Assembly: GCA_020638655.1 (NCBI GenBank)
Contig: JACKIC010000007.1
Location: 351,849-415,848 of the forward strand
From: Planctomycetota bacterium
GTDB lineage: Bacteria; Planctomycetota; UBA1135; UBA2386
Length of the DNA: 64,000 bases
Direction of reading: 5' to 3'
Position numbers and translations under genes: made by a program. Every line of letters starts with the position of its first letter. Position 1 is the first letter of the stretch. This document shows, piece by piece, positions 7,569 to 54,574 of the stretch. The notes below the pieces were generated by a model, which did no database searches, had not been told where the DNA came from, and saw only the letters and a program-made list of their open reading frames with translations.

Positions 7569-7630
7569 GTCTGGCTCGCTGAGTCTGGCTCGCTGAGTCT
7601 GGCTCACCGAGTCTGGCTCACCGAGTCTGG
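7561..7630. repeat. 14-bp tandem repeat x5 (ctcgctgagtctgg x3, ctcaccgagtctgg x2)
   Basis: Read directly. The first unit contains the TGA stop of the EIIA-like gene. The array ends about 50 bp before the next start codon. Confidence 0.9.
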
Positions 7631-7682
7631 CGGGGGGAGGGCAGCGGACCGCCGCGGGCGGTATCCTCTGCCGCCCGCACCG

Positions 7683-11204: not shown

Positions 11205-12281
11205 TCACTGCGGCAGCCACTGGGGCAGGCGCTGGCCGATCGCGGCGCGGATCTCGTCGCGCGCGCGGCGGTAGTGCTGCAGTTCGCCGCCGTAGGGGTC
11301 GGCGATGTCGTGACCGTCCGGGCGCAGCAGGTGCACGCGGCTGGCGACTTCGGGCATCTCGGCGAGGATCGCGCGGCGGTGGCTCTCGCCCAGGCAGTAG
11401 ATGTGGTCGGCGGCCCGCACCAGTTCGTGGTCGATCTGGCGGCTCTGGTGCGCACCGAGGTCGAGACCGATCTCCGCGGCCGCGAGCACGCTGTTCTCGC
11501 TCGCCGGCATGCCGTCGTAGGTGCTGGTGCCGGCGCTCGCGAACGCGTAGCCGCAACTCAGCACCTCGTCCGCGGCCACGCCGAGCTGGCGCGCGGTGAG
11601 GTCGCGCGCGATCGCCTCGGCGAGCGGCGAGCGGCAGGTGTTGCCGGTGCAGACGAACACCACCAGTTCGGCGGCCGTCTCGAACACTTCCCGCGCGGAG
11701 AGGATGCCCTCGCGCAGCACCTGCAGGCGCTGGCCCGCGAGGCGCACCACGGTCGAAGCCGAGCCGAGCGGCGACGGGCCGTCGTCGACGATCAAGGCCA
11801 GGTGCGCGCCGAACTGCGCCTCGATCGCGGCGGCGTCGAGCAGCGGCGGCGTGCCGGTGGCGTTGACGCTGGTCAGCCACAGCGGCTCGCCGGCGGCGGC
11901 GATGACCGCGCGCGTGAACTCGTTGGCCGGGACGCGCATGCCCACGTCGGCGCCGTCGCGGCCCGGCATCACCAGGCTCAGCGGCCCCGGCCAGTAGCGC
12001 TTCACCAGCGGCGTCACACGCGGCGACAGCGGCCCGACCAGCGCTTCGGCCGCAGCGGCATCGGCGAGGTGGAAGGTGAACGGGTGGTCCTCGGCGCGGC
12101 CCTTCATCAACCTGGCGCGGCTCAGGGCCGCGGCGTTGCTCGGCAGCAGCGCGAGCCCGTAGACGGTCTCGGTCGGCAGCACGCAGAGCTCGCCGGCGCG
12201 CAGGTGACGGACCGCCGCGGCGACCAGTTCGGCGCGGTCCGGCGGGGTGAGTTTGCGTCGTGCACACGGCATCGGCGGCAC
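11205..12281 (-). CDS. Fusion: threonylcarbamoyl-AMP synthase (TsaC/YwlC/Sua5-type YrdC domain) plus low-molecular-weight protein phosphatase (YwlE-like)
   Basis: N-terminal half: LPTETVYGLA...YWPGPLSLVM...LWLTSVNATG (YrdC fold). C-terminal half: VFVCTGNTCRSPLAEA (CX5R-S P-loop) and DIADPYGG (general acid). Confidence 0.85.
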   Translation of the reverse strand: MPPMPCARRKLTPPDRAELVAAAVRHLRAGELCVLPTETVYGLALLPSNAAALSRARLMKGRAEDHPFTFHLADAAAAEALVGPLSPRVTPLVKRYWPGPLSLVMPGRDGADVGMRVPANEFTRAVIAAAGEPLWLTSVNATGTPPLLDAAAIEAQFGAHLALIVDDGPSPLGSASTVVRLAGQRLQVLREGILSAREVFETAAELVVFVCTGNTCRSPLAEAIARDLTARQLGVAADEVLSCGYAFASAGTSTYDGMPASENSVLAAAEIGLDLGAHQSRQIDHELVRAADHIYCLGESHRRAILAEMPEVASRVHLLRPDGHDIADPYGGELQHYRRARDEIRAAIGQRLPQWLPQ

Positions 12282-12376
12282 GATACCGGCAACGCCGCCG
12301 AGCCCCAGGACCGGTCGCCGAAACGGCAGCCGGCGCGAGCATTCGCGCGGGCCGGCGCCTATCGTTCTCCGGCTCC

Positions 12377-13122
12377 ATGTCCCAGTCCGTCCGCGAAGAA
12401 CGGCTCACTCGGATCCGCACCCAGCGACTCGCCCGGCTCGGGACCCTGCTCGCCGGGTTCGCCCACGAGGTGCGCAACCCCCTGAGCACCATCGGGCTCA
12501 ACCTGCAGCTGGTGCTCGAGGACTTCGAAGACCCCGAGACGCCGCGCGACAAGCGCACCCAGAAGCGGCTCGGCACCGTGCAGAACGAGGTCAAGCGGCT
12601 GCAGACGATCCTCGAGGAGTTCCTCGGCTTCGCCCGCGCGCCCGAGCCGCGGCTGGTGCCGGTCGACCTCAACGAGAAGTTGCGCGCGTTGATCGAGTTC
12701 CACGAGCCCGACCTGCGCGACGCCGACGTGTCGCTGCGCTTCTATCCAGGCGCCGGCGTCGGCCAGGTGCCGGTCGACTGGGACCACCTGCAGGCCGCCG
12801 TCGTCAACCTGATCCGCAACGCCAAGGAGGCGACGCCGCGCGGCGGCGAGGTGCTGGTCTCGACGGTGCGTGAGCCGGCCGCCGTGCTGCTGCGCGTCAC
12901 CGACACCGGCGCGGGCATCCCCGCCGAGCTGCAGCCGCGCGTGTTCGAGCCCTACTTCAGCACCAAGAAGGCCGGCACCGGGCTCGGTCTGCCGACCGTG
13001 CGGCGCGTCGCCGAAGAGCACGGCGGCACCGTCGGCCTGCAGAGCGACGTCGGCAAGGGCACCCAGTTCACGATCAGCCTGCCGACCCATCCGGTGGTGG
13101 AAGGCGACGGCGAGGGCACGCG

Positions 13123-13126
<4 letters not shown>
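12377..13126 (+). CDS. Soluble histidine kinase with no recognisable sensor domain (HisKA + HATPase_c)
   Basis: H-box LLAGFAHEVRNPLSTI, N-box NLIRNAKEA, G1 DTGAGIP, G2 KKAGTGLGL. Start taken at MSQSVREERL (39 codons inside ORF 12260..). The stop overlaps the next start (ATGA). Confidence 0.85.
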
Positions 13127-14472
<1,346 letters not shown>

Positions 14473-41459: not shown

Positions 41460-42494
41460 TCAGGCCGGCAGCAGGAAGTCGATCGTGATCGCGGCGCGGC
41501 CGGTGCGCCGCGCGGTCGCCTGGCCGCGGTGGCCGAGCACGACGGTCTGCACCAGGAACAGGCCCAGCCCGTGGCTCTGGCCCTGTAGCAGGCGGCTGGG
41601 GTAGTAGGGCTCGAACGTCTGCGGCAGCCGCCACTGCTCGAGCGGCGGGCCCGCGGCGGCGAGGCGCAGCTGCACGATGCCCGCGCGCAGCAGCAGGCTG
41701 AGTTCGGCGCGCGCGCCGCCACGCGCGAGGCCGTCGGCGAACTCGAGCGCGGCGCGGGCCGCGGCGGCGAGCTGCTCGGGGTCGCCGTCGAGCACGCACG
41801 GGGCGCTCGGCAGGTCCACTGCCGCCTGCTCGGGCTGCTGGCGCGGCCGGGCCGCGATCGCCTGCTGCACGAGGTCGGCGAGGTCGACGCGGGCGCGGCG
41901 CTGCGGGCCGCCCGCGGCCACCGACAGCAGACGCAGCCGATCGACCGAGGCCTGGATGCGCGCGATGCCCTGCATCGCCGCGTCGAGCTGGTCGCGCCGC
42001 GCCGCGTCGGTCGGGTCGAGGCCCGCGCGCAGCAGCTGCAGGTGCCCCGACAGGAACATCAGCGGGTTGTTGATCTCGTCGGCGATGCCGTGCGCGAGGT
42101 CGACGAACACCTCGGCGCGCGGCCGGTCGCTGCCTTGCAGCGCCTGCTCGACGACCGCGGCGAGCTGGCCGGGGGCGTGCGGGTAGAGCAGCAGGCGGCC
42201 GCCGATGCGGGTCGCGTGCGCCGCCTGCTGCAGTTCGCCCTCGGGGCTCGTGACCAGCACGATCGCGAGCGCGGGCCACAGCTGCCGCAGCAGCCGCAGC
42301 GCGCCGACTTCCTCGGCGGGCTCGGGACCCAGCTGCACCAGCAGCAGCTCGGGTTGGTATCGCGCCAGGCTGTCGGTGTCGTCGCAGACGTTGGCGAAGC
42401 AGCGCACCTCGGGCCGCAGCGGCAACTGCCGCAGCGCGCCGACGAGGTCGTCGGCGACGCCCCCGACGACGGCGATACGCACGCTGCGTTCCAT
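41460..42494 (-). CDS. REC-like + HisKA-like + HATPase_c-like protein with both phospho-acceptor positions substituted (pseudo-kinase candidate)
   Basis: Receiver-like N-terminus reads IAVVGGVADD and ELLLVQLGPEP where DD and D are canonical. The H-box reads LAHGIADEINNPL versus the common G(V/I)AHEINNPL. G1 reads AAAGPPL versus DNGxGI. G2 is SHGLGL. Start taken at MERSVRIAVVGG. Confidence 0.6.
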   Translation of the reverse strand: MERSVRIAVVGGVADDLVGALRQLPLRPEVRCFANVCDDTDSLARYQPELLLVQLGPEPAEEVGALRLLRQLWPALAIVLVTSPEGELQQAAHATRIGGRLLLYPHAPGQLAAVVEQALQGSDRPRAEVFVDLAHGIADEINNPLMFLSGHLQLLRAGLDPTDAARRDQLDAAMQGIARIQASVDRLRLLSVAAGGPQRRARVDLADLVQQAIAARPRQQPEQAAVDLPSAPCVLDGDPEQLAAAARAALEFADGLARGGARAELSLLLRAGIVQLRLAAAGPPLEQWRLPQTFEPYYPSRLLQGQSHGLGLFLVQTVVLGHRGQATARRTGRAAITIDFLLPA

Positions 42495-42647
42495 GGTTGC
42501 GAAGTCCTGGTTGCGCCCATCCCGGTGCGGCATGCGGGGATGGAAGGGCCGGAGGGTAGCCGGGGGCGTGTCCGGTGTCACCATACATGCACAGTCGGCA
42601 GCCCGTCTGGCTATAGCCGGCCCGCGTTTCCCTCCGATAACAGCGTC

Positions 42648-43037
42648 GTGACCGGTGATCGGGACCAACACTCGGGTTCGGCTGGCGGCGGCGGGCCCGA
42701 CGGCCCCGACGGCCCGCGGTTCCGCCTGCGCAAGGTCGCCGGGCCGGTCGCCGGCAGCGAGCCGGCGCCGGAGGTTCGGTTGCACCGCGAGTTCAAGGGG
42801 CTCACCGTCGCCGACCTGATGCGCCTGGAGATCGCCGAGCGGTTGCCTGGTCAGGTGCAGAAGGCGCTGCGGCAGATCCAGCACGGCCAGTTCGCCGCCG
42901 CCGATGACGCGCTGCCGGGCGCGTTCCCGCCGATCTTCGCGGGCCCGGGCAGTCGTCGCCGTCGCCGGTCCGGCGCGTGGCTGGTCGTCGCCCTGCTCGG
43001 CGCTTCGGTGGCGGCGGCCGCGTGGTGGTGGGCGTGA
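42648..43037 (+). CDS. Small C-terminally anchored protein, function unknown (start very uncertain)
   Basis: The high third-position-GC stretch FKGLTVADLMRLEIAERLPGQVQKALRQIQHGQF ends in RRRRRSGAWLVVALLGASVAAAAWWWA (TM). Upstream of about 42650 the third-position GC drops. Confidence 0.35.
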   Translation: MTGDRDQHSGSAGGGGPDGPDGPRFRLRKVAGPVAGSEPAPEVRLHREFKGLTVADLMRLEIAERLPGQVQKALRQIQHGQFAAADDALPGAFPPIFAGPGSRRRRRSGAWLVVALLGASVAAAAWWWA

Positions 43038-43080
43038 AGGTTCGACAGAACCCTCGCGGATGGGGCGCCGGCGTTGCACG

Positions 43081-44109
43081 ATGCGGGGCCGCATGGTGAC
43101 CCCGGGCTCGCTGCCGCATGCCGATCACGCCGAAGGCCACACCGCTCCTGGCGGCGCGCCCGAGATCAGCGTCGTCGTGCCCATCTACAACGAGCGCGAC
43201 AACATCGCGCCGCTGCACGCGGCGCTGACCTATGCGCTCGCGGCGCTGCACCGCAGCTACGAGATCCTGTTCGTCGACGACGGCAGCACCGACGGCACCG
43301 CCGACGTGATGCGCGCCTGCGCCGCCACCGACCCGCACCTGCGGCTCGTGTTCTTTCGGCGCAACTACGGCCAGACCCCGGCGATGGCGGCCGGCTTCCG
43401 CGCCTGCCGGGGGCGCATCGTGGTGTCGATGGACGGCGACCTGCAGAACGATCCCGCCGACATCCCGCGGCTCGTCGCGCGGCTCGACGACGGCTTCGAC
43501 GTCGTCTGTGGTTGGCGCCGCCACCGCCAGGACCGCATGGCGACGCGCCTCTTGCCGAGCCGCATCGCCAACTTCCTGATCGCGCGGGTGACCGGCGCGC
43601 GCATCCACGACACCGGCTGCTCGCTCAAGGCCTACCGCGGCTGGGTGGTGCGCAGCCTGCACCTCTACTCCGACATGCACCGCTTCCTCGCCGCGCTCGG
43701 CGCCGGCATCGGCGCGCGCATCACCGAGGTGCCGGTGCGCCACCACGCGCGTCGCGCCGGCCAGTCGAAGTACGGGCTCGGTCGCATCTTCCGCGTGCTC
43801 GCCGACCTGGTCGGCATCAAGATGCTGATCCAGTTCGCGGCGCATCCGATCCGCTGGTTCACGCTGCTGTCGCTGCCGCTGTTCGTGCTCGCGCCGTTGA
43901 TGTTCGCGCTCGGCTTCGTCAAGGTCACGCGCGAAGGGCAGTGGCTGCTGTTCGGCGACTACGACATGGCCGCGGTCGCGGCCGGCAGCGTCGCGCTGCT
44001 GTTCGCGATGAACGTGTTCCTGCTCGGGTTCCTGGCCGAGCTGCAGATCAAGGTGTCCAAGTTCTTCCGGCAGCGGATCTCGATCACGGCGCGCGAGGCG
44101 AGTCGATGA
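43081..44109 (+). CDS. GT2 polyprenyl-phosphate glycosyltransferase (GtrB/DPM1/ArnC-like) with C-terminal TM helices
   Basis: ISVVVPIYNERDNI, ILFVDDGSTDGT, VVSMDGDLQNDP (DxD), two C-terminal TM helices. Alternative starts at 43060 and 43093. Confidence 0.88.
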   Translation: MRGRMVTPGSLPHADHAEGHTAPGGAPEISVVVPIYNERDNIAPLHAALTYALAALHRSYEILFVDDGSTDGTADVMRACAATDPHLRLVFFRRNYGQTPAMAAGFRACRGRIVVSMDGDLQNDPADIPRLVARLDDGFDVVCGWRRHRQDRMATRLLPSRIANFLIARVTGARIHDTGCSLKAYRGWVVRSLHLYSDMHRFLAALGAGIGARITEVPVRHHARRAGQSKYGLGRIFRVLADLVGIKMLIQFAAHPIRWFTLLSLPLFVLAPLMFALGFVKVTREGQWLLFGDYDMAAVAAGSVALLFAMNVFLLGFLAELQIKVSKFFRQRISITAREASR

Positions 44110-46265
44110 ACGAGATGGTCCAGCCGATGGCCGCCGCGCCCGCGCCGCTGGTGTCGGTGGTGGTCGCGGTCAGCGGTCCCGAGGCCAACCCCGCGCCCGT
44201 GGTCGAGGGCATCGGTCCGGCGCTGCTGCGCGCGGGCTATCGCTGCGAGTTCGTCTTCGTGCTCGACGGTCCGGCCGGCCGCGTCGAGGCGCAGCTGCGC
44301 GAGCTGCAGGAGCAGTGGCAGCTGCGCATCGTGCAGCTCCAGGGCGGCGGCCTCGGCGAGTCGATCGCGCTGTCGGCGGGCGTCGCCAAGGCCGAGGGCG
44401 ACTACATCCTCAACGTGCCGCCGTACCTGCAGCTCGAGCCCGAGGAGGTCACCAAGGTGATCGCCGCGCTCGAGGCCGGCGCCGACTGCGTCGCGACCTG
44501 GCGCCGATCCCGCATCGATCCGTGGCTCAACCAGCTGCAGTCGCGACTGTTCAACTGGGCCCTGCGGTTGATCATGAAGACCTCGTTCCACGACCTGAAC
44601 TCGGGCACGCGCGGCTTCCGCCGGCAGGTGCTCGAGGAGGTCGCGGTCTACGGCGAGCTGTACCGGTTCTTGCCGGTGATGGCGCAGCGGCAGGGCTTCA
44701 AGGTGGTGGAGGTCGAGGTCCGGCACCGCGAGGAGAAGGGCCGCGCCGGCTTCTACGGGATCGGCGTCTACCTGCGCCGGATGCTCGACATCCTCGCGAT
44801 CACCTTCCTCACCCGCTTCACGCAGCGGCCGCTGCGGTTCTTCGGCTACCTCGGCTTCGCGGCGATCGCGGTCGGCGCGCCGATCGCGATCGCCTACCTG
44901 TACTGGCGCTTCACCGTCGTGAACTACTCGCTGGCCGACAAGCCGGCGTTCGTGATCGGCGCGATCCTCGCAGCGTTCGGCGTGCAGCTGATCGGCTTCG
45001 GGCTGGTCGGCGAGATCATCATCTTCACGCAGGCGCCCAACCTGCGTGACTACAAGGTCGACGAGGTCGTCGAAGGTGGCGCGGCGCAGATCGGCGAAGA
45101 GAAGCACCACGCCGAGATCCACCCCGAGGTCCACGCGGCGCGCAGCGACCGCGTCGGCCCCCCCGAGGGCGCCGCGGCCGCCGAGCCGGTCGAGGCGCCG
45201 TCGCGCGTGCGCGAGCTGCTGCCCGGCGAGGACGCGCGCTGGGACGCGTTCGTGAGCCGCCACCCGCAGGGCACGTTCTTCCACCTCAGCGGTTGGTCGC
45301 GCGTCGTCCAGGAGACCTTCAAGCACAAGCCGTATCCGCTCGTCGTCGAGCAGGGCCGGCGCTGGCTCGGCGTGTTGCCGATGTTCCTCGCCAAGAGCCC
45401 GTTCCTCGGGCGCAACCTGGTGAGCCTGCCGTACGCCGTCTACGGCGGGGTGCTCAGCGAGACCGCCGCCGCCCAGGCCGCGCTGATGGCGCGCGCCGAG
45501 GCGCTCGGCCGCGAGCTGTCGGTCGGCTACGTCGAACTGCGGCACCTCGAGCCGCGCAGCACCGAGCACCCGCGCTCGGAGCTGTACGTGACGTTCCGCT
45601 GCGATCTGCCCGACGACCCCGCCGAGGTCATGGCGCGCATCCCCAAGAAGGCTCGCGCCGAGGTGCGCCGCGCCCGTGCCCCGCTCGCGCCGGCGACCGA
45701 CAAGACGCCGCCGTGTTACGGCATCGTGGTCACGCCCGACGGCTCGGTCGACGAGCTGTTCGCCCTGTTCGCGGAGAACAAGCGGCGCCTGGGTTCGCCG
45801 ACCCTGCCCAAGCGCTGGTTCGGCGCGATCGTCGACGAGTTCGGCAAGGCGGTGGTGATCCACCGCGCCGTCGATCCCAGCGGGCGCACGCTCGCCGCGG
45901 TGATGAGCTTCTGCTTCCGCGACACGGTCTACGCCTACTACTCCGGCTCGCTGACCGGCATCAACGACACCGGCGTCAACAACCTGATCTACTGCGCGAT
46001 CATGGAGTGGGCGGTGGAGCAGGGTTACACGCGCTTCGACTTCGGCCGCAGCCGCGTCGATTCGGGGCCGGCGAAGTTCAAGAAGAACATGGGCTTCGCC
46101 GCGGAGCCGCTGCACTACGAGTATCTGCTGCTCGGCGACGGCGCCAAGCTGCCGGAGTTCCACCCGAGCAATCCGCGGTTGGCCCTGCCGCGGCGGCTGT
46201 GGTCGCGGCTGCCGATGCCGGTCGCGAACTTGCTCGGCGCGCGGTTCTCGCGCTACCTTCCGTGA
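44106..46265 (+). CDS. Fusion protein: GT2-like domain lacking the acidic motifs + 2 TM helices + FemAB-family (PEP-CTERM-associated type) acyl/aminoacyl-transferase-like domain
   Basis: ATGA overlap with the upstream GT2. The N-domain is colinear with the upstream GT2 but reads FVFVLDGPAG and ILNVPPYLQLEP. TM helices: FFGYLGFAAIAVGAPIAIAYLYW and FVIGAILAAFGVQLIGFGLVGEIIIF. C-domain: WDAFVSRHPQGTFFHLSGWSRVV...GVLPMFLAKSPFLGRNLVSLPYAVYGG...YYSGS. The reading frame is continuous with no stop. Confidence 0.8.
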   Translation: MNEMVQPMAAAPAPLVSVVVAVSGPEANPAPVVEGIGPALLRAGYRCEFVFVLDGPAGRVEAQLRELQEQWQLRIVQLQGGGLGESIALSAGVAKAEGDYILNVPPYLQLEPEEVTKVIAALEAGADCVATWRRSRIDPWLNQLQSRLFNWALRLIMKTSFHDLNSGTRGFRRQVLEEVAVYGELYRFLPVMAQRQGFKVVEVEVRHREEKGRAGFYGIGVYLRRMLDILAITFLTRFTQRPLRFFGYLGFAAIAVGAPIAIAYLYWRFTVVNYSLADKPAFVIGAILAAFGVQLIGFGLVGEIIIFTQAPNLRDYKVDEVVEGGAAQIGEEKHHAEIHPEVHAARSDRVGPPEGAAAAEPVEAPSRVRELLPGEDARWDAFVSRHPQGTFFHLSGWSRVVQETFKHKPYPLVVEQGRRWLGVLPMFLAKSPFLGRNLVSLPYAVYGGVLSETAAAQAALMARAEALGRELSVGYVELRHLEPRSTEHPRSELYVTFRCDLPDDPAEVMARIPKKARAEVRRARAPLAPATDKTPPCYGIVVTPDGSVDELFALFAENKRRLGSPTLPKRWFGAIVDEFGKAVVIHRAVDPSGRTLAAVMSFCFRDTVYAYYSGSLTGINDTGVNNLIYCAIMEWAVEQGYTRFDFGRSRVDSGPAKFKKNMGFAAEPLHYEYLLLGDGAKLPEFHPSNPRLALPRRLWSRLPMPVANLLGARFSRYLP

Positions 46266-46270
46266 CCGCC

Positions 46271-46552
46271 ATGACCGCCGCGAAACCGCCAGTACCTCCC
46301 AGCCCGCCGTCGCGCCCGCGGCCGGTCGGCTCGACGAACGTCGAGCACACCAAGTGGTCGCCCGGGTTGATCGGCTTCTACCTGAGCTGCGCCGGCGTCG
46401 CGCTCGGCGCCACCTTCGCGGCGTCGGGGCACTTCTTCTTCGGCAACGACGTCTGGCTGCTGGTCGGCGGGCTGCTGTCGGTCGTCAGCTGCGTCACCTG
46501 CTACTACTCGCTGCGCGCGGCGCGGCGGGCGCCCGGCTCACGCCCCGAGTAG
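46271..46552 (+). CDS. Small two-TM membrane protein, function unknown
   Basis: 93 aa. LIGFYLSCAGVALGATFAASGHFFF and VWLLVGGLLSVVSCVTCYYSL. The start lies within 10 nt of the upstream stop (a GTGA alternative is at 46262). Confidence 0.45.
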   Translation: MTAAKPPVPPSPPSRPRPVGSTNVEHTKWSPGLIGFYLSCAGVALGATFAASGHFFFGNDVWLLVGGLLSVVSCVTCYYSLRAARRAPGSRPE

Positions 46553-47104
46553 CCAGTCGACGGCCGCGGCGAGGTCGGCGGCTTCGTGGTCCGGTTCCAT
46601 GCCGGCCTCGCGCAGCAGCGCCCGCTGTTCGGCCGCGGGTTTGCCCGAGCGCACGTGGATCGTGGTCAGCGGCAGGCCGCGGCCCATCAGCAGGTCGCGG
46701 GCGCTGTCGCCGATCAGCACCCCGCCGGCGAACTGCAGGCCGAGCAGTTCCCTGGCTTCGTGCAGCAGGCCGGGCGCCGGCTTGCGGCAGTCACAGGCAT
46801 GGCCGTAGCCGTGGCCGCCGTCGGGCAGGTGGGGGCAGTGCAGATAGGCGCGCGGCAGGCGGTGCAGGCGCTCGTGCAGCGTCGCGTGGATGTGGGCGAG
46901 GTCCGCTTCGGTGTAGAGGCCGCGCGCGATGCCGCTCTGGTTGGTGACCACGACGATCTCGTAGTCCGCCGCGTGCAGCCGGTGCAGCGCGTCGACCACG
47001 CCGGGGAGCACGACCAGGCCTGTGACGTCGCGCACGAAGCTGACCTCGGCGTTGATCGTGCCGTCGCGGTCGAGGAAGGCGACCTTCTTGCCGCGCGGTG
47101 TCAC
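46538..47104 (-). CDS. gmhB: D-glycero-D-manno-heptose 1,7-bisphosphate phosphatase (HAD family)
   Basis: FLDRDGTIN (DxDxT), VVVTNQSGIARG, the zinc-site-like CPHLPDGGHGYGHACDCRKP, and GDSARD. GTG start overlaps the upstream stop (GTGA). Confidence 0.85.
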   Translation of the reverse strand: MTPRGKKVAFLDRDGTINAEVSFVRDVTGLVVLPGVVDALHRLHAADYEIVVVTNQSGIARGLYTEADLAHIHATLHERLHRLPRAYLHCPHLPDGGHGYGHACDCRKPAPGLLHEARELLGLQFAGGVLIGDSARDLLMGRGLPLTTIHVRSGKPAAEQRALLREAGMEPDHEAADLAAAVDWLLGA

Positions 47105-47568
47105 GGCTGCCGCATGGGAGTGCTGCCGCGGCCTTGTTGCAGCAGGTCGAAGCCGAGCAGCGGCTCGTCCTCGCCGTAGAGCCTGCAGTGCAGCTCGCCG
47201 GGCACGATCGCAGCGCGCACGGCGAACGGGAACACGAAGTCGCCGGCGGTCCAGAACAGCGGCAGCGGGGGCAGCACGTCCTCGTAGGCGCCGTCGATCC
47301 ACTTCGAGGTGTAGGTCTCGGTGTACTGCACCAAGAGCCGCTGCTCGGGCCGGTAGCCCTTCTTCTCCAGGCGGATGGCGTGGTTGCCGCCGAGGATGTC
47401 GCCGAGGGACAGGTTCGCGGGCGTGGTCAGGCCGGTGTCGACGCCATCGACCAGGATCCGGGCGCCGAGCGGGTCGCTCGTCACCAGCACGTACTCCTCG
47501 TTGTGGAACCACGTGCAGCCGCCGCACAGGTTGAGCAGGGCGAGGGTCGTGAGCCGGCGCATCGACAT
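47101..47568 (-). CDS. PEGA-domain lipoprotein
   Basis: MSMRRLTTLALLNLCGGC lipobox, then SDPLGARILVDGVDTGLTTPANLSL...HAIRLEKKGYRPE (PEGA pattern). Confidence 0.7.
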   Translation of the reverse strand: MSMRRLTTLALLNLCGGCTWFHNEEYVLVTSDPLGARILVDGVDTGLTTPANLSLGDILGGNHAIRLEKKGYRPEQRLLVQYTETYTSKWIDGAYEDVLPPLPLFWTAGDFVFPFAVRAAIVPGELHCRLYGEDEPLLGFDLLQQGRGSTPMRQP

Positions 47569-47785
47569 GGTCCGGATCCTATCGGCTGCGCGCGCCCCGG
47601 TCGCGCAATGGCTCGGCGCCGGCGCGCCGCCGCCGCTGCGGGAGCCCGCGAAAGACCGCTCGCCTTTGGCCATGAATCCGGTAGCATCGTGCCCCTGTCA
47701 ACGTCTGCCGGTCGCGGGGCGGTCATCCCGGCGATCCATTCCGGCCGGCGCACCACGAGCCCAGGGCGGGCTCCTCGGAGGTCAC

Positions 47786-49018
47786 ATGGTCGTTCGAAAC
47801 AACTGGCGAGCCGCCGCGGTCACGGCGCCTCGTCTCGCCGCGGCGCGCGCCGCGACTCTGCTCTTCCTCGTCGGCATCGGGGCGATCGGCAGCGCGACGC
47901 TGCAGGCTCAGACCCCTGGCTCGCAAGAGCCCGGCCAGAATCCCGGCAGCACGACTCCCGGCAGCACGGTCGAAGCCAGCGCCGCAAAGTCTGCCGACGC
48001 GCAGTTGGGCCGCGTCGTCGCCGAGAAGGTGCAGCTGCGTTGCTGGCCGAGCCAGGTCGCGACACCGCCGATGTTCGAGGACGAGCTGGTCAAGGACGAG
48101 GTCGTCAACGTCGGCGCCGTCGAAGGCGGCTTCCGCCAGGTGATCCTGCCGCTCGGCCCGGTCGGCTACGTCAGCAAGAAGTTCACCGTGACCGGGGCCG
48201 ACGGCGCCGTCGTCACCAAGGGCAACGGCGTGTCGTTCCGCTACCGCCCGCGCAGCACCGAAGCGCCGGTCGACTACCTCGCGGACGCGACGCCGCTGGC
48301 GATCGTCGGCGAGGACGGCGACTGGTGGCGCGCGCGCGCCGCCGGCGTGAAAGCCTGGTTGCCCGAGGCCGAGGTGCAGCTGGTGACGACCCCGAGCGCC
48401 GCCGATCGCGACGCCCTGGCGAAGTCGACGGCCCGTTACCAGGCCGAGGTGCAGGCGCGCCTCGACGCGATCGCGCAACAGGCCAAGGTGGCCGCGCAGA
48501 ACGATGCCGACCTCGCCGCGGTCAAGGTGGTCGAGGACGCGTTCGCGACCGAGATCACCAAGCCCGCGACCGAGCAGAAGTTCGAGCCGCTGACGGTCGC
48601 GCTCGACAAGCTGACTGCGACGCTGAGCGAAGAATCGGCGGCGCGCCCGGCGATCGCCTCGCTGCAGAAGCGCATCGAGACGCAGCGCTGGATCGCCGAG
48701 GCCCTGATCATCCAACAGGACAAGCCGGTGCCGGCAACCGACGTGCAGCCCGTGGTGCAGCCCAAGGACGAGCTCGACCGCTTCCAGTCGATCGGTTGGC
48801 TGCGCTACGAGTCGACCTTCGGCGCGCCGGGCACCTACTACCTCGAGAAGGGCGGCAAGCGCCTGCACGTCGTGACCTGCGCGAGTGGCCGATACGACCT
48901 GGCCCTGTTCCTCGATCGTGAGGTCGGGCTGATCGGCCCGCGTCGCCGGCCGAACACCGAGGGGGTCAGCAACCTCGATGTCGAGCGCATCGAGGTGCTC
49001 GGCGTGCCCAAGCACTGA
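47786..49018 (+). CDS. Secreted protein with SH3b-like beta domains and a central coiled coil
   Basis: A GGAGG motif precedes ATG 47786. Signal peptide ...AATLLFLVGIGAIGSATLQAQ. Repeated V.LRC.P....g..v.v...GW..v motifs. Confidence 0.6.
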   Translation: MVVRNNWRAAAVTAPRLAAARAATLLFLVGIGAIGSATLQAQTPGSQEPGQNPGSTTPGSTVEASAAKSADAQLGRVVAEKVQLRCWPSQVATPPMFEDELVKDEVVNVGAVEGGFRQVILPLGPVGYVSKKFTVTGADGAVVTKGNGVSFRYRPRSTEAPVDYLADATPLAIVGEDGDWWRARAAGVKAWLPEAEVQLVTTPSAADRDALAKSTARYQAEVQARLDAIAQQAKVAAQNDADLAAVKVVEDAFATEITKPATEQKFEPLTVALDKLTATLSEESAARPAIASLQKRIETQRWIAEALIIQQDKPVPATDVQPVVQPKDELDRFQSIGWLRYESTFGAPGTYYLEKGGKRLHVVTCASGRYDLALFLDREVGLIGPRRRPNTEGVSNLDVERIEVLGVPKH

Positions 49019-49058
49019 GTTCGAGCCGCCGGCAGCATCGGCCCCTTGTCATGGGGCG

Positions 49059-50726
49059 ATGCTGCGTCGCGGAACGGGACCGCAGCCGGACGGCGCGGAT
49101 TGCCGAAGGAGGCTGACGAGCCCCTTCGTTCCGCACCGAGTGTCCACGACCGACCGAGTTCCCGCCGCACCGCGCCGTTCCTGCCCATCGCGGTGGGTTG
49201 GGCTCGCCGCGTCGCTGCTGGCCGCCGCGGCGATGCCGGCCCAGGCGCCCGCGCCGCCCGGCGCGTCGGTGCCCCGTGTGCACTGGCTGCAGGAAGGCGA
49301 GGTCCGCCTGCAGCGCGAGGACCCGCTGCTCGCGTGGCAGGCGTTCGAGCGTGCGCTCACCGAGGGCGCGGCCACCGCGTCCTGCCAGCTCGGCCTGGGC
49401 CGGGTGCATCTGATGCTGGGGCGCGCGACCGCGGCCGAACGCTGCGCCGCGGCGGCGTTGCTCGCCGAGCCCGACAACCAGAGCGGCATGGCCTTGCGGG
49501 TGCTGGCCCAGATCCGGGCGCGGGAGTTCGACGCCGCGGCGCGCACCGCGGGGCAGTTCGTGCTGCGCGTCGACGACCCGGGTGCCGAGTTGCTCGCGGC
49601 CCGCGGCTCGGCGCTGTTCCGGGTGCAGCGCACCGACGAGGCCGCCACCACCTACCAGGTCGTGGTGGCGCTCGAACACGACCACGCCGAGGCGCACCTG
49701 CGCCTGGGGTCGGGGCTGTTGCCGCCGACCGAGGTGCGCATCGGGGACGACCTGCGCGACGCCGTGGCCGCGGCGCGCAGCGGCGAGCTGCGGAAGTGCA
49801 TCACCACGCTGCAGCGCGTCGTGCAGCGCGAGCCGGGCAACCCGGTCGCCCACCGGCTGCTCGGTGAGGCGCTGTTCAACCAGCGGTTCGCCAGCAGCAT
49901 GGCGGCGACCGACGAGGCCTTCCGGGTGCTGGCGGCCGCGATGCCCAGGCCGCAGGTCAAGGACGTGCCGACCGCCGACTTCATCCGTGGCTACGCCGAG
50001 CTCGACCGCACCCGCGCCGCGGTGGTCGATGGCGCGGTCGCGCTGTTCGCGTCCCGCCTGCCCAAGCTGATCGCCGTCGGCGGCAGCCACGACCTGCTGC
50101 GCGAACTCGACCGGACCACCGACGCGCCGACGCGCGCGAACCTGCGCGGCCGGCGCACCTTCGACGGCCGGGTGTGGGACGACGTGCGCGGCATCGGCGG
50201 TCTGACCGCGGCGACCGGCATCGAGGCCCTCGACGAGAGCGCGCAGTTCGGCTTCGACACGCTCGCGCACGAACTCGCGCACCAGGTGCATTTCTTCGCC
50301 TTCAACCCGCTGCAGCGGGCGCGCATCAAGGCGCTCTACAACCGCGCGCTGCAGGACGACATGTGCCTGGACTACTACGCCGCGAGCAACGAGGCCGAGT
50401 ACTTCGGTCAGGGCGTCGAGGCGTTCCGCAGCCTGGCCAAACGGCCCGGCGGCGAGACCACACATGGGCACACGCGGTTCGAGCTGTACCGCGTCGACAA
50501 GCCGCTGCACGACTTCATCGCCGGCCTGGTCGACTTCGACCCGCTCGCCGGCAAGGAGCGCCCGGCGGTGCTGCGCGCCGCCTACGCGGTGGCGCTGCGT
50601 TGCGGCCGGCCCGCCGACGCGGTCACCGCCGCCGAGCTGCTGGACGCCGGCGCCGAGCGCGACCGCCTGCTCGAGCAGGCGCAGGAGGCGGTGCGCCAGG
50701 CCGAGCTGCGGATCGAAGAGCGCTGA
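49059..50726 (+). CDS. Secreted TPR-repeat protein with a C-terminal HExxH zinc-peptidase-like domain (MtfA/M90-like)
   Basis: TPR region, then TLAHELAHQVHFF and YYAASNEAEYFGQGVEAF, which resemble the M90 HEFAH...YGATNPAEFFAV pattern. Start uncertain. Confidence 0.55.
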   Translation: MLRRGTGPQPDGADCRRRLTSPFVPHRVSTTDRVPAAPRRSCPSRWVGLAASLLAAAAMPAQAPAPPGASVPRVHWLQEGEVRLQREDPLLAWQAFERALTEGAATASCQLGLGRVHLMLGRATAAERCAAAALLAEPDNQSGMALRVLAQIRAREFDAAARTAGQFVLRVDDPGAELLAARGSALFRVQRTDEAATTYQVVVALEHDHAEAHLRLGSGLLPPTEVRIGDDLRDAVAAARSGELRKCITTLQRVVQREPGNPVAHRLLGEALFNQRFASSMAATDEAFRVLAAAMPRPQVKDVPTADFIRGYAELDRTRAAVVDGAVALFASRLPKLIAVGGSHDLLRELDRTTDAPTRANLRGRRTFDGRVWDDVRGIGGLTAATGIEALDESAQFGFDTLAHELAHQVHFFAFNPLQRARIKALYNRALQDDMCLDYYAASNEAEYFGQGVEAFRSLAKRPGGETTHGHTRFELYRVDKPLHDFIAGLVDFDPLAGKERPAVLRAAYAVALRCGRPADAVTAAELLDAGAERDRLLEQAQEAVRQAELRIEER

Positions 50727-51594: not shown

Positions 51595-52923
51595 ATGTCC
51601 ACGTCAGTATTCCAAGCCCGCCTCGCGGTCGCCCTCTTCGCCGCCAGCGCGACCACGCTGCTCACAGCCCAGGGCACGCAGGACGCGGCGCCCGTCGGCC
51701 AGCCCGCGCGCTGCGGCACGCCCAACACCTTCCAGGGCGGCTCGTTCCTCGACAACCCGGACTGCGACTTCTACCAGACCAACCCGAGCCAGACCTACGC
51801 GCCGACCAGCGTGCAGCGCATCCCGGTGGTCGTGCACGTGATCCAGAACAGCTCGGGCACCGGCAACCTCGGCAACGCCCTGGTGCAGAGCCAGATCACG
51901 GTGCTCAACGAGGACTTCCGCGCGATGAGCGGTACGGCGGGCGCGAACGGCGTCGACAGCCAGATCGAGTTCTTCCTCGCCACGACCGATCCGAACGGTC
52001 AGCCGACGACCGGCATCGTGCACTACACCAACAACACGTGGTTCACCGACGCCGGCGGCTACTACAACTCGATCGCCTGGAACCCGCAGCGCTACCTCAA
52101 CATCTACACCAACAACGCCGGCGGCGGCGGCGTGCTGGGCTACGTGCCGGCGATCCCGCAGTCGGGCAACATCGCGGGCACCGCGGCCGATCGTGTCGTG
52201 ATCCTCTATTCGGCGTTCGGTCGGCCGGGGCTCGGCGGCTCGCCCTACAACCTCGGCCGCACCTGCACGCACGAGGTCGGGCACTACCTGGGCTTGTTCC
52301 ACACCTTCGACAGCGGCTGCGGCTCGTCTTCGGCGTGTTACACGAGCGGCGATCGCATCTGCGACACCAACCCCGAGTCGCAGCCGCGCTACGGCTGCCC
52401 GACCACGGCGACCAGCTGCGGCAGCCTGGACCCGGTGCGCAACTACATGGACTACACCAACGACTCCTGCATGACCGGCTTCTCGGCCGAGCAGGTGCGG
52501 CGCATGCGCTGCACGTTGGTCAGCTACCGTCCCAACCTGGCGCAGCCGGCCGGGCCGATCGCGTCGGCGACCTCGCGCAGCGGCGCCGGCAACCTCAACT
52601 CGGCCTTCTTCGCGACCGCCCCGCGGCTCGGCATGCAGGCCTCGATGAACGTGGTGACGTTCAACACGCCCTACTCCCTGGCGATGGTGCTCGGCTACAC
52701 CGGCGCGGCCAGCCAGCCGTTCAACGGCTACACGGTCCTGATCGACACGCTGTCCGCGCCGGTGCTGCAGATGCCGCTGATGGCCAGCGCGACGGTGGTG
52801 TCCTGGACCTACGCCGTGCCCAACGATCCCGCGCTCGGGGGCCTGCAGATCAAGAGTCAGGGGCTGATGCTCGGCCAGACCTTCGCGCTCACCAACGCGA
52901 TGGATCTGGTGCTCGGCAACTGA
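51595..52923 (+). CDS. Secreted zinc metalloprotease, M43 (pappalysin/ulilysin-like) family, with an uncharacterised C-terminal domain
   Basis: Signal peptide MSTSVFQARLAVALFAASATTLLTAQG, CTHEVGHYLGLFHTF (HExxHxxGxxH), Met-turn NYMDYT, multiple Cys. Confidence 0.85.
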   Translation: MSTSVFQARLAVALFAASATTLLTAQGTQDAAPVGQPARCGTPNTFQGGSFLDNPDCDFYQTNPSQTYAPTSVQRIPVVVHVIQNSSGTGNLGNALVQSQITVLNEDFRAMSGTAGANGVDSQIEFFLATTDPNGQPTTGIVHYTNNTWFTDAGGYYNSIAWNPQRYLNIYTNNAGGGGVLGYVPAIPQSGNIAGTAADRVVILYSAFGRPGLGGSPYNLGRTCTHEVGHYLGLFHTFDSGCGSSSACYTSGDRICDTNPESQPRYGCPTTATSCGSLDPVRNYMDYTNDSCMTGFSAEQVRRMRCTLVSYRPNLAQPAGPIASATSRSGAGNLNSAFFATAPRLGMQASMNVVTFNTPYSLAMVLGYTGAASQPFNGYTVLIDTLSAPVLQMPLMASATVVSWTYAVPNDPALGGLQIKSQGLMLGQTFALTNAMDLVLGN

Positions 52924-52969
52924 CCTTTCTGGCGCCGGCGGCGGTGGTGCGGTATGTGACGATGCCGCG

Positions 52970-54574
52970 TTGAACGACTCGTCCCGAACGTCAACCCGGA
53001 TGCCGACCGAAGCCCTGCCTGTCGAAGACCACCCCGCTGGCATGGATGTCCAGCCGCGGTTCACGGCGCGCCACGGGCTGTGGCTCATCGCGGCGACCCT
53101 GCTCGCGGCGGCGCTGCGGCTGTGGCACCTGGGCGAGTGGTCGTTCTGGGTCGACGAGGCGCACACCTGGCGCGACGTGACCTGGCCGCTGGAGGGCGGA
53201 TCGGGCTTCCTGGGCACCGACCGCGGCAAGTACCCGCTGGCTTTCCTGCTGCTGCACGGGCTGCGCAGCGCCGGCCTGCTCGGCGACGACGAGTTCTCGC
53301 TGCGGCTGCCGTTCGCGCTGCTCGGCATCGCCTCGGTGCCGCTGCTGGCGCTGTGCGGGCGCCGGCTCGTCGGCCCGACCGCCGCCGTGGTCGCGGCGCT
53401 GCTCTGCGCCGTGCACCCGTGGCACATCTTCTGGAGCCAGAATGCGCGCGGCTACATGCTCGTGTTCGTGGCCTCGATCGTGGTCGTCGACCGCGCCGTG
53501 TGCTGGACCCAGCATCGGCGCAAGCGCGACCTGGTCCTGGGCGTGCTCGCGCTGCTGGTCGCCGCGCTGAGCCACCCGACCGGCCTGATCCTCGGCGTCG
53601 GCGTGGGCGCGTTCGTGCTGCTGCTGCCGTTCGCGGGCGCCGACGGGCAACGCCTGCTGCTGGTCGCCGGCATCACCCTCGCGGTCGTGACCGCGGGCTC
53701 GATCCTGATGGCGAAGTTCGGGCCGTACCAGGAGTTCATGGGGTCCAAGGGCACCCCCGCGCCGCTGCACTTCCCGCAGACGGTGGCCTACTACTTCCGC
53801 CCGGCGCTGCTGCTGGCGGCGCTCGGGGGGCTGGTGCTCGCGGGGCTGTGGTGGTCGTCGCTGCGCGGCCTGCTGGTCACGTGCATGCTGCTGGCGCCGT
53901 TCATCGTCCTGCTCGCCATCGGCGGTTCGCTGGTCAAGGCGACCGCGCGCTATGCGTTCTGCACCCTGCCGCTGTGGTTGTTGCTGGCCGGCAAGGCCGG
54001 CGCGCCGTGGCTCGAAGGCGCGCGCGCGAAGGCCGTCCTGCGCACCCTGCCGGCGGCGCTGGTCGGCGCGATCGTCGCGTGCGACCTGGTCACCGAGACG
54101 ATCGCGTACCACCACGAGCAGTTCGGCCAGCGGCCGCGGTGGCGCGAGGCCTGCACGTTCGCGGCCGAGCACGCCCGGGCCCGTGGCGGGCGCGGGGCGC
54201 TGCGCGTGTTGACGATCCTGCACCCGCCCACGGCCTACTACCTGCAGCGCTACCACTGGACCGCGGAAGGCGCGAACATGTACCCCTTGGTCGATCTCGA
54301 GGCGCTGCTGAGGTCGCGCATCGAAGACGGGGAGGGGCCGGCGGGTGCGGAGCACCAGGGCCACCCCTTCCTGCGGCAGCAGCAGGCCGCCGCCGATTCG
54401 CGCGGCGAGGCGCTCGTGGTGATGGTGAAGCTGCCGGAGCTGGCGGAGATCGACGCCGGCGGCGCCTTCCTGCGGGCCTTGCAGGAGGGGTTCGAGCTGG
54501 CGCTCTACCTGCCGTGTTGGGTCGGCCCCAAGGACGAGAGCCTCTACGTGTACGTGCCGAGAGGAGAACGATGA
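52970..54574 (+). CDS. GT-C fold glycosyltransferase (GT39/ArnT/PMT-like), polytopic
   Basis: LRLWHLGEWSFWVDEAHTW (the DE motif in the first periplasmic loop), more than 10 hydrophobic helices, soluble C-terminal domain. The stop overlaps the next start (ATGA). Confidence 0.65.
   Translation: MNDSSRTSTRMPTEALPVEDHPAGMDVQPRFTARHGLWLIAATLLAAALRLWHLGEWSFWVDEAHTWRDVTWPLEGGSGFLGTDRGKYPLAFLLLHGLRSAGLLGDDEFSLRLPFALLGIASVPLLALCGRRLVGPTAAVVAALLCAVHPWHIFWSQNARGYMLVFVASIVVVDRAVCWTQHRRKRDLVLGVLALLVAALSHPTGLILGVGVGAFVLLLPFAGADGQRLLLVAGITLAVVTAGSILMAKFGPYQEFMGSKGTPAPLHFPQTVAYYFRPALLLAALGGLVLAGLWWSSLRGLLVTCMLLAPFIVLLAIGGSLVKATARYAFCTLPLWLLLAGKAGAPWLEGARAKAVLRTLPAALVGAIVACDLVTETIAYHHEQFGQRPRWREACTFAAEHARARGGRGALRVLTILHPPTAYYLQRYHWTAEGANMYPLVDLEALLRSRIEDGEGPAGAEHQGHPFLRQQQAAADSRGEALVVMVKLPELAEIDAGGAFLRALQEGFELALYLPCWVGPKDESLYVYVPRGER

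Follow-up and report, generated by a model that had tools for sequence, protein, structure and literature searches.

A glycosyltransferase-like domain lacking the DxD motif is fused to a FemAB/VimA-like transferase in a putative envelope-glycan cassette of Planctomycetota

Several described pathways share features with a gene cassette that we analysed in a Planctomycetota bacterium (NCBI GenBank assembly GCA_020638655.1, contig JACKIC010000007.1, positions 351,849 to 415,848 of the forward strand; this whole stretch of 64,000 nucleotides is called the window). The cassette contains an intact family 2 glycosyltransferase (GT2; gene 1), a protein in which a GT2-like domain devoid of the DxD motif is fused to a FemAB/VimA-like transferase domain (gene 2), and a small protein with two hydrophobic helices (gene 3). 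In the ArnC-ArnD-ArnE/F-ArnT pathway, a GT2 loads an N-blocked amino sugar onto undecaprenyl phosphate, the sugar is edited at the lipid stage, small proteins flip it and a PMT-type GT-C enzyme transfers it. The LgmA-C system of Bordetella and the FlmF2/NaxD/FlmK system of Francisella follow the same logic, and we know of no dead paralogue in the Arn, Lgm or Flm systems. The locus resembles the Arn pathway in that gene 1 is most similar to ArnC and the linked GT-C enzyme belongs to the same Pfam clan family (PMT_2). It differs in that no ArnA, ArnB or ArnD homologues were seen, and in that the proposed editing enzyme of the cassette is Fem-like, whereas that of the Arn pathway is a deformylase/deacetylase.

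A second point of comparison is the Wbp/Vim pathway of Porphyromonas gingivalis and Tannerella forsythia, which provides the linking sugar for PorU, the sortase of type IX secretion (T9SS). According to a CDD search, VimA of P. gingivalis falls in TIGR03019, whose model is also passed by the C-terminal domain of gene 2, and VimA has been genetically implicated in the N-aminoacylation of a deacetylated amino sugar. With vimA from T. forsythia swapped in, the amino acid on the 2-N-aminoacyl-3-N-acetyl-uronic linking sugar changed from Ser to Gly; the CE4 protein VimE was proposed to deacetylate the sugar before the VimA step, and VimA-like proteins associated with PEP-CTERM systems were put forward as possible makers of a sugar modified with an amino acid for exosortase (PMC7468200). 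The likeness lies in the proposed chemistry, deacetylation of an amino sugar followed by its N-aminoacylation, and in the presence of a CE4 deacetylase and a sortase-like enzyme (exosortase) near the cassette in sister loci. On the other hand, VimA is a stand-alone soluble protein, and its pathway has neither a live/dead pair of polyprenyl-phosphate GT2s nor a GT-C enzyme. In comparison with VimA, the tethering of the Fem-like domain to a membrane module of the polyprenyl-phosphate glycosyltransferase type implies a monosaccharide-on-lipid substrate.

The peptidoglycan enzymes FemX, FemA, FemB and MurM share with the cassette the double-GNAT fold and an FK motif with a catalytic Lys, and in Staphylococcus aureus the FemX substrate is undecaprenyl-linked and the product is the sortase nucleophile. 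The cassette protein differs from them in its subfamily, its non-cell-wall context and its fused GT2-like membrane module. The Orf11-type enzymes Sba18 and Sbb17 (PDB 9wqw-9wqy) set a precedent for Fem-like glycyl transfer to the amino-sugar amine of streptothrisamine (PMC12945691). They are the best structural matches of our Fem domain, but they are soluble actinomycete secondary-metabolite enzymes with about 16% identity to it and use no lipid carrier. Finally, MprF, in which an LPG_synthase_TM flippase domain is combined with an aminoacyl-tRNA-dependent lipid aminoacylase, aminoacylates the head group of a membrane lipid at the cytoplasmic face, after which the product is flipped, and the dead GT2 family described here is fused either to a Fem-like domain (window) or to the MprF-type domain LPG_synthase_TM (protein P0240). 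MprF differs in having a DUF2156 synthase domain, phosphatidylglycerol as substrate and no GT2 module.

The results below indicate that the DxD-less GT2 belongs to a widespread family that is always paired with a live paralogue, and that the window, whose overall G+C content is about 71%, carries the fused form, peculiar to one lineage, of a conserved cassette that probably serves envelope glycans. Its features are as follows.

41460..42494, minus strand: histidine-kinase-like protein with a receiver-like N-terminus, diverging from the operon (HisKA, 32 bits)
42648..43037, plus strand: small open reading frame (ORF) of 129 aa, GTG start as read, directly 5' of gene 1
43081..44109, plus strand: gene 1, DxD-bearing polyprenyl-phosphate GT2 (ArnC/GtrB/DPMS type), 342 aa (PF00535, 1e-31)
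44106..46265, plus strand: gene 2, GT2-like and FemAB-like fusion, 719 aa, single ORF with no internal stop
44106..45059, plus strand: gene 2 residues 1-318, DxD-less GT-A-like domain with juxtamembrane helices and two transmembrane helices
45060..45203, plus strand: gene 2 residues 319-366, low-complexity variable linker (low model confidence, identity 0.24)
45204..46265, plus strand: gene 2 residues 367-719, FemAB/VimA-like double-GNAT transferase domain (TIGR03019)
46271..46552, plus strand: gene 3, 93 aa with two hydrophobic helices, starting 5 nt past the gene 2 stop
46538..47104, minus strand: GmhB-like HAD-IIIA phosphatase, 188 aa, GTG start at 47104 (TIGR01662 and TIGR01656 passed)
47101..47568, minus strand: PEGA-domain protein with a signal-like N-terminal sequence (PF08308, 3.3e-9)
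48978-50726 and 47780-49018, both plus strand: TPR protein and SH3-domain protein
52868..54574, plus strand: PMT_2 GT-C membrane glycosyltransferase (PF13231, 29.9 bits)

A preliminary description of this DNA, made from the sequence without database searches, had taken gene 1 for a canonical polyprenyl-phosphate GT2 with VDDGSTDG and DGDLQ motifs and two C-terminal transmembrane helices, and the alignments bear this out. The protein carries the motifs FVDDGSTDG and MDGDLQND, matches PF00535 with 110.6 bits (1e-31) and Salmonella ArnC (PDB 9bhc) with E = 1.3e-50, and aligns to ArnC residues 8-281 and GtrB residues 25-299; the GT-A domain is followed by juxtamembrane helices and two transmembrane helices. 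In the structure of ArnC solved by cryo-electron microscopy, residues D48, N77, D100, D102, Q104, R128, R131, R137 and R205 hold the donor, the metal and undecaprenyl phosphate; the first Asp of the DxD motif has been proposed as the catalytic base for all polyprenyl-phosphate glycosyltransferases, and both ArnC and GtrB are tetramers (bioRxiv 10.1101/2025.01.29.634835). All nine residues are kept in gene 1 in the HMMER alignment, where they fall in the segments MDGDLQN, DDG, RRNYGQ, WRRHRQD...R and ARRAGQSKY. Gene 1 thus looks like a competent polyprenyl-phosphate glycosyltransferase. The possibility that it is an ArnC orthologue was rejected, as it scores 181 bits with the NCBIfam equivalog model PRK10714, whose cut-off is 529.

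Gene 2 starts at an ATGA overlap, its ATG sharing the gene 1 stop, and the same layout of a GT2 domain followed by two transmembrane helices, already recognised in the preliminary description, is confirmed by colinearity with ArnC from residue 12 or 16 to residue 322 (PDB 9hwj, 5.5e-26; PRK10714, 89 bits). The first half of its AlphaFold model matches ArnC and GtrB in Foldseek with E = 1e-14. The N-terminal domain reaches 42 bits with PF00535, against 110 for gene 1, and is 27% identical to gene 1 over 300 aa (BLASTP). At the two acidic motifs it reads FVLDGPAG and NVPPYLQLEP, so that the earlier reading of VLDGPAG and VPPYLQ stands. Four of the nine ArnC residues are kept, namely D54 (equivalent to D48), Q109 (Q104), R133 (R128) and R136 (R131), and five are lost (N77 to G82, D100 to P105, D102 to Y107, R137 to N142 and R205 to E210). 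A careful alignment might have restored the missing Asp residues, but this was rejected: HMMER alignments with three ArnC structures and the BLASTP alignment with gene 1, which pairs VPPYLQLEP with MDGDLQNDP, all place P-P-Y under D-A-D or D-G-D. With no DxD, gene 2 has no metal ligand and no proposed catalytic base at this site, and its N-terminal domain looks like a dead, ancient paralogue that would lack transfer catalysis.

The same domain is nevertheless far from being a decaying relic. In 30 orthologues with 68-84% identity to the window protein, P105, Y107, L108, Q109, E111, P112 and D54 are invariant, and the motif PPYLQxEP stands unchanged in place of DADLQ. Mean pairwise identity among the orthologues is 0.77 in the GT-A-like part, 0.79 in the juxtamembrane and transmembrane part, 0.24 in the linker, whose length also varies, and 0.77 in the Fem domain. 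Since the DxD-less domain is as conserved as the Fem domain, it appears to be under purifying selection as a maintained, re-purposed module. What the family keeps throughout are the two arginines on the undecaprenyl-phosphate side, the juxtamembrane helices and the transmembrane helices; what it loses are the DxD and the equivalents of N77 and R205. In the AlphaFold model of gene 2, the mean predicted local distance difference test (pLDDT) score is 73.5, with values of 45-90 in the GT-A-like part, below 50 in the linker and around 90 in the Fem domain.

The C-terminal domain had been described as FemAB-like, in a family that includes uncharacterised PEP-CTERM-associated proteins. Family membership was confirmed, as residues 377-719 match TIGR03019 (pepcterm_femAB) over the whole model (1-330 of 330) with 328.4 bits, above the cut-off of 260.35, and PF13480 (Acetyltransf_6) with 2e-14. 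The domain is no orphan, however: it shares TIGR03019 with VimA, the only experimentally studied protein linked to this family in the literature searched, which has been studied genetically. Membership in the peptidoglycan FemX group was rejected, since PF02388 (FemAB) gives 16.2 bits, under its cut-off of 24, and the FemX equivalog NF047883 gives 20 bits for a cut-off of 500.

In Foldseek searches the top solved folds for the Fem domain had TM-scores of 0.65-0.77; they were Sba18 and Sbb17 (0.74-0.77) and FemX of Weissella and Staphylococcus. The Sba18 and Sbb17 structures are those of aminoacyl-transfer RNA (tRNA)-dependent peptide synthases and were solved with the amino-sugar substrate streptothrisamine, whereas the acetyl-coenzyme A (CoA)-dependent Eis proteins rank lower, with TM-scores of 0.35-0.41. 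A profile built from 30 diverse TIGR03019-type domains matched S. aureus FemX (3e-18), Sbb17 (2e-13) and Weissella FemX (1e-9). In the alignments with S. aureus FemX and with Sbb17/Sba18, the segment GPAKFKKNMGF, which corresponds to F658-K659 of gene 2, falls on the FK pair of these enzymes, and within the profile the K is invariant and the F is present in at least 90% of the domains. In Weissella FemX, K305 of the FK pair F304-K305 is the only reactive residue in the active site (PMC12945691). From these sequence and fold relationships, the donor of the Fem domain is most likely an aminoacyl-tRNA. Homology to ArnC and GtrB places the GT-A part and the C-terminus after the second transmembrane helix in the cytoplasm, so that the Fem domain would also be cytoplasmic, where aminoacyl-tRNA is available.

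The preliminary description stated that the GT2 domain runs into the Fem domain without a stop. This is the case in the window, and the fusion was found in at least 120 independent protein clusters at 90% identity, the named sources of which are Planctomycetes metagenome-assembled genomes. A word-indexed search retrieved 281 relatives, and details were taken from the best 120 of these, which were 64-99% identical, nearly all of about 700-760 aa and provided with both Pfam domains. In a scan of one genome per GTDB species, 65 loci with the fusion were recovered, nearly all labelled Planctomycetota, and independent assemblies therefore show the same open architecture. On these grounds we rejected the possibility that the fusion arose from a frameshift or an assembly artefact. 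Some of the fusion-bearing genomes carry the labels Brocadiaceae, Kuenenia stuttgartiensis, Singulisphaera or Luminiphilus; with loci 60-85% identical to those of other Planctomycetota, they seem to have been mis-assigned automatically or during binning.

Among 1.84 billion clusters of a library built at 50% identity, full-length fusions make up only three (P0121, P0122 and P0125), and stand-alone matches to one half or the other number in the hundreds. At loci such as L070/L071 and L152, a GT2, a DxD-less GT2 and a stand-alone Acetyltransf_6/FemAB_like gene follow one another unfused, with start/stop overlaps, and in L070/L071 the HAD and PEGA genes come next on the opposite strand. A Fem-like gene lies directly downstream in 30 of the 50 unfused loci with enough downstream sequence, and the two parts are fused in only 5 of 80 metagenome loci. 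As the same genes occur unfused and adjacent, the window protein is a Rosetta-stone fusion of two neighbouring genes. These data indicate that the fusion is a secondary, lineage-specific joining and not the basic unit of the wider cassette.

Stand-alone relatives of the N-terminal half (35-45% identity) also lack the DxD motif and read SPQYVQVDP, LPPYLQVDP, LTPYLQIEP or LASYIQIEP at this site. A search with a profile of such stand-alone DxD-less proteins found 597 proteins and 80 metagenome loci, in Planctomycetota, in Gammaproteobacteria (Salinisphaera aquimarina, Aquisalimonadaceae) and in Candidatus Polarisedimenticolaceae. Every GT2-like ORF in all loci was then classed by the residues at the DxD columns, and throughout the wider stand-alone family the site proved to be non-acidic and aromatic instead (x-Y/F/W-x-Q). 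When only loci with 900 nt or more of upstream sequence are considered, the gene immediately upstream, on the same strand, is a DxD-bearing GT2 in 56 of 57 loci from metagenomes and in 55 of 59 from genomes, as counted by a script with a distance criterion and a fixed gene-length estimate. Each of the five exceptions lists an upstream DxD-bearing GT2 that the fixed gene-length estimate sets too far off. The two GT2 genes overlap at start and stop in the window and in loci L070, L152, L153, L154 and L155. The DxD-less GT2 is thus a widespread family, always paired with a live paralogue.

What follows the dead GT2 varies among the loci. In L153, L129, L134 and L136 it is a CE4 polysaccharide deacetylase with DUF3473; in L153 the next genes encode a histidine kinase, then a sigma-54 response regulator, then a TPR protein, in the order described for PrsK, PrsR and PrsT. 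P0240 joins a dead GT2, on which PF00535 fails, to LPG_synthase_TM, a domain of the MprF type (PF03706, 109 bits). In the cultured Salinisphaera aquimarina (L068, 9100-12086), the dead GT2 is followed by a 649-aa protein without a family and then by a separate LPG_synthase_TM protein, and this locus looks like a Fem-less variant of the cassette.

With regard to the smaller members of the operon, gene 3 lies 5 nt downstream of gene 2, in agreement with the two-transmembrane protein of 93 aa announced within 10 nt, and the 129-aa ORF at 42648-43037 has a hydrophobic C-terminal tail (LVVALLGASVAAAAWWWA), as expected for the small tail-anchored protein said to precede the operon. The position of both is kept in 59 related loci (tblastn), across which the 129-aa ORF is about 46-83% identical. 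No Pfam match was found for the 129-aa ORF, and no Pfam or NCBIfam match for gene 3.

Downstream, the HAD phosphatase and PEGA genes converge on the operon from the minus strand and are joined to each other by a GTGA overlap of the phosphatase start with the PEGA stop. They had been presented as gmhB and a PEGA lipoprotein. Convergence and the HAD-IIIA and PEGA identities hold, and the best PDB relative of the phosphatase is indeed GmhB (2gmw, 2.8e-30), with a CPH...CDCRKP loop present as a candidate for the Zn-binding Cys loop; the HAD-IIIA models are passed, but the GmhB equivalog cut-offs are not reached (PRK08942, 141 bits for a cut-off of 178; TIGR00213, 105 for 150). The GT-C transferase placed some 6 kb away proved to be the PMT_2 protein, the kind of enzyme that consumes polyprenyl-phosphate sugars, and it is linked to the cassette. 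It passes PF13231 marginally (29.9 bits, cut-off 26.1), and no match to it was found in the PDB by sequence. In the most distant fusion loci, at 42-47% identity (L061, L063 and L064), the GT2 and the fusion are followed by the HAD and PEGA genes, in this order and both on the minus strand, and these by an adjacent PMT_2 GT-C gene. HAD, PEGA and PMT_2 genes recur in unfused cassette loci, and PEGA adjoins the HAD gene in L061, L063, L064, L070 and L154/L155. The TPR gene, whose product has a weak PrsT match (33 bits), and the SH3 gene separate PEGA from the GT-C gene both in the window and in its close relatives; the distant loci lack them, and PEGA there adjoins the GT-C gene.

The divergent gene, reported earlier as a pseudo-kinase, fits that name. 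The protein reaches 32 bits with HisKA and a sub-cut-off 19.7 bits with HATPase_c, and its H-box has Asp in place of the phospho-acceptor His (ADEINNPL against HE[LI]xxPL), a replacement present in 49 of 54 homologues, with ADEINNPL or a motif close to it; many of them also have Arg for the His that lies four residues upstream. The gene adjoins the cassette in 50 of 67 genome loci and in sister loci neighbours a sigma-54 response regulator. To judge from these residues, the protein is probably a conserved pseudo-kinase or a non-canonical kinase. Further upstream, the synteny with YidC, MiaA, RsmG and NadD-like genes was considered as part of the system and rejected. In distant loci these genes are replaced by others, so they are not cassette members, and they were judged housekeeping genes kept by close relatedness. 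In L154 (173-3591, minus strand), an asparagine-synthase-type amidotransferase, of a domain type shared with the WbpS/eps_aminotran_1 enzymes discussed alongside VimA, and a flippase of the Wzx kind separate miaA from rsmG as an insertion just 5' of the cassette. Elsewhere in the window, positions 7569-10202 have about 79% G+C and long overlapping ORFs on both strands, and look like Pro/Ala/Arg-rich low-complexity coding sequence.

Sorting of PEP-CTERM proteins by exosortase was reportedly predicted in 2006 by Haft; we know of no identified acceptor molecule of exosortase, and no identification of it was found in the literature searched. Six fusion-bearing sister loci (L029, L036, L039, L040, L052 and L065) contain an exosortase-EpsI gene (TIGR02602, 120.8 bits, cut-off 105.55) and a CE4 deacetylase gene 7-10 kb upstream of the fusion. 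The gene order is exosortase-EpsI, CE4, a protein of about 1350 aa outside all Pfam and NCBIfam families, a sigma-54 response regulator and the kinase-like gene, and the regulator reaches 405 bits with the PEP_resp_reg (PrsR) model, below the cut-off of 502. The sister-locus exosortase passes the general model only and may represent an unclassified planctomycete type; for that of L040 (285-1898, plus strand), to which an EpsI-like C-terminal domain is fused, the best specific model is XrtD, at 167 bits far under the cut-off of 400. In the window itself, a histidine kinase and a sigma-54 regulator (12251-14472, plus strand; PrsR, 386 bits for a cut-off of 502) lie 30 kb from the cassette, with no exosortase near them.

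We propose, with a probability of roughly 0.45, that the cassette aminoacylates a polyprenyl-phosphate-linked sugar. At the cytoplasmic face, gene 1 would take a sugar, probably N-acetylated or otherwise amino-substituted, from a nucleotide donor and load it onto polyprenyl phosphate. The N-terminal half of gene 2, predicted to be devoid of transfer catalysis, would have kept its membrane-embedded part and part of the lipid-phosphate side and would serve gene 1 as a partner subunit or as a scaffold that binds lipid, as the ArnC and GtrB tetramers suggest. The flexible linker would hold the cytoplasmic FemX/VimA-like double-GNAT transferase near the site where the lipid-linked sugar is made, and this domain would add an amino acid, most likely from aminoacyl-tRNA, to that sugar. 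The modified sugar would then be flipped, for which gene 3 is a candidate, and the PMT_2 GT-C enzyme would transfer it to an envelope acceptor. By analogy with FemXAB and sortase, and with VimA and the T9SS sortase, exosortase could use the free alpha-amino group as the nucleophile to anchor PEP-CTERM proteins. The preliminary description had the dead GT2 present the lipid-linked sugar to the Fem domain for acyl or aminoacyl decoration before export. A non-catalytic GT2 working with gene 1 and the Fem domain fits our data, but a scaffold role in a hetero-oligomer with gene 1 appears at least as likely as lipid presentation. Decoration agrees with the adjacency of the Fem domain and the linkage of the GT-C gene; exosortase and CE4 genes in sister loci point to a more specific purpose, for which decoration before export is too general. 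A more far-reaching version, in which the DxD-less paralogues would be obligate non-catalytic subunits of heteromeric polyprenyl-phosphate glycosyltransferases and would hand a lipid-linked amino sugar to CE4, Fem or MprF-type modules docked or fused to them, with the product delivered by the GT-C enzyme being the exosortase nucleophile, is tentative and in our view rather doubtful.

Several observations weigh against the proposed aminoacylation route. An amine acceptor on the sugar is assumed, and no aminotransferase or deacetylase was found at the window locus. The 64-kb window contains no exosortase, CE4 deacetylase or PEP-CTERM tail, so that the link to protein sorting comes from sister lineages only. 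The GmhB-like phosphatase is conserved yet is given no step in the mechanism, and the PEGA protein, also a conserved cassette member, has none either. The synteny stems largely from one related clade, and part of it is perhaps inherited rather than selected. A sigma-54 promoter 5' of the operon, sought because of PrsR-like neighbours elsewhere, was rejected: matches to TGGCAC-N5-TTGC were below chance expectation and none was convincing in 42495-43080. Finally, D54, expected from ArnC to bind uracil, and Q109 are retained in gene 2, which may allow nucleotide binding or metal-independent activity, and the AlphaFold model of this GT-A-like domain is only of moderate confidence, with the pLDDT range given above.

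In an alternative view the DxD-less GT2 is still an enzyme, a metal-independent or re-tooled GT-A protein adding a second sugar or using another donor, with a lipid-linked disaccharide being acylated afterwards. Its strong conservation (0.77 mean identity), the invariance of D54, Q109 and the equivalents of ArnC R128 and R131, and a new invariant motif, PPYLQxEP, where DADLQ stood would all suit an active site, and metal-independent GT-A enzymes exist, such as the GT14 enzyme C2GnT. We regard this as quite unlikely, given that both Asp residues of the DxD are gone, including the proposed catalytic base, together with the N77 and R205 equivalents. Moreover, the first DxD position is variable (P, A, T, S or G), unlike a new catalytic residue; the PF00535 score drops from 110 bits in gene 1 to 42 in gene 2, and the model fails in P0240; and strict pairing of this kind, with an intact paralogue, typifies a non-catalytic partner.

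The aminoacylation proposal also has a variant in which the Fem domain is an acyl-CoA-dependent N- or O-acyltransferase that adds an acetyl or short acyl group, leaving an acylated lipid-linked sugar. Acetyltransf_6 (PF13480, 2e-14) is a GNAT family, acetyl-CoA-dependent Eis appears among the lower Foldseek matches, and VimA was once described as a putative acetyl-CoA transferase (cited in PMC7468200). All of the best sequence and fold matches (FemX, Sba18/Sbb17) are nevertheless aminoacyl-tRNA-dependent, the FK motif with its catalytic Lys is invariant, the Eis TM-scores of 0.35-0.41 compare with 0.65-0.77, and the exchange of vimA between species turns Ser to Gly on the sugar (PMC7468200), all of which makes the variant unlikely. 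Homology to the S. aureus lipid II:glycine glycyltransferase FemX (3e-18), and a membrane tether derived from an undecaprenyl-phosphate-binding enzyme, might instead suggest that lipid II is the substrate on which the Fem domain makes a side chain or cross-bridge of peptidoglycan, with the dead GT2 as a membrane anchor and gene 1 and the GT-C enzyme unrelated to it. This is highly improbable: the domain scores 20 bits with NF047883 (cut-off 500) and 16 with PF02388 (cut-off 24) while passing TIGR03019, the cassette is devoid of mur, mra and pbp genes, and its linkage is to a polyprenyl-phosphate glycosyltransferase, a GT-C enzyme, a CE4 deacetylase and an exosortase and not to cell-wall genes.

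The components of the cassette are of known kinds, and the idea of an aminoacyl sugar for exosortase has already been published as speculation. What is new here is a family of dead partners, the strictness with which it is paired with a live GT2 and its alternative fusions to Fem-like or LPG_synthase_TM domains. In line with the view that the architecture is undescribed, the literature searched, where only the VimA paper and Haft 2006 proved relevant, contained no description of the fusion, of a dead polyprenyl-phosphate glycosyltransferase family or of obligate pairing, and no pairing with a dead enzyme was found in that on ArnC, GtrB and others. The protein family itself is already in public databases, under the automatic name 'FemAB family PEP-CTERM system-associated protein', which ignores the GT2-like half.

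The dead GT2 family bears on the organisation and regulation of tetrameric polyprenyl-phosphate glycosyltransferases, and the editing it implies on a polyprenyl-phosphate monosaccharide would be new. The cassette offers a concrete route to a candidate exosortase acceptor, an amino acid on a polyprenyl-phosphate-linked sugar. If the proposed mechanism is true, it would place the editing at the cytoplasmic face, on the lipid carrier, and name the proteins to purify, and Fem-type aminoacyl-tRNA chemistry, known from peptidoglycan and from antibiotics, would reach further, towards envelope glycans linked to lipid in a phylum-level lineage that is uncultured.

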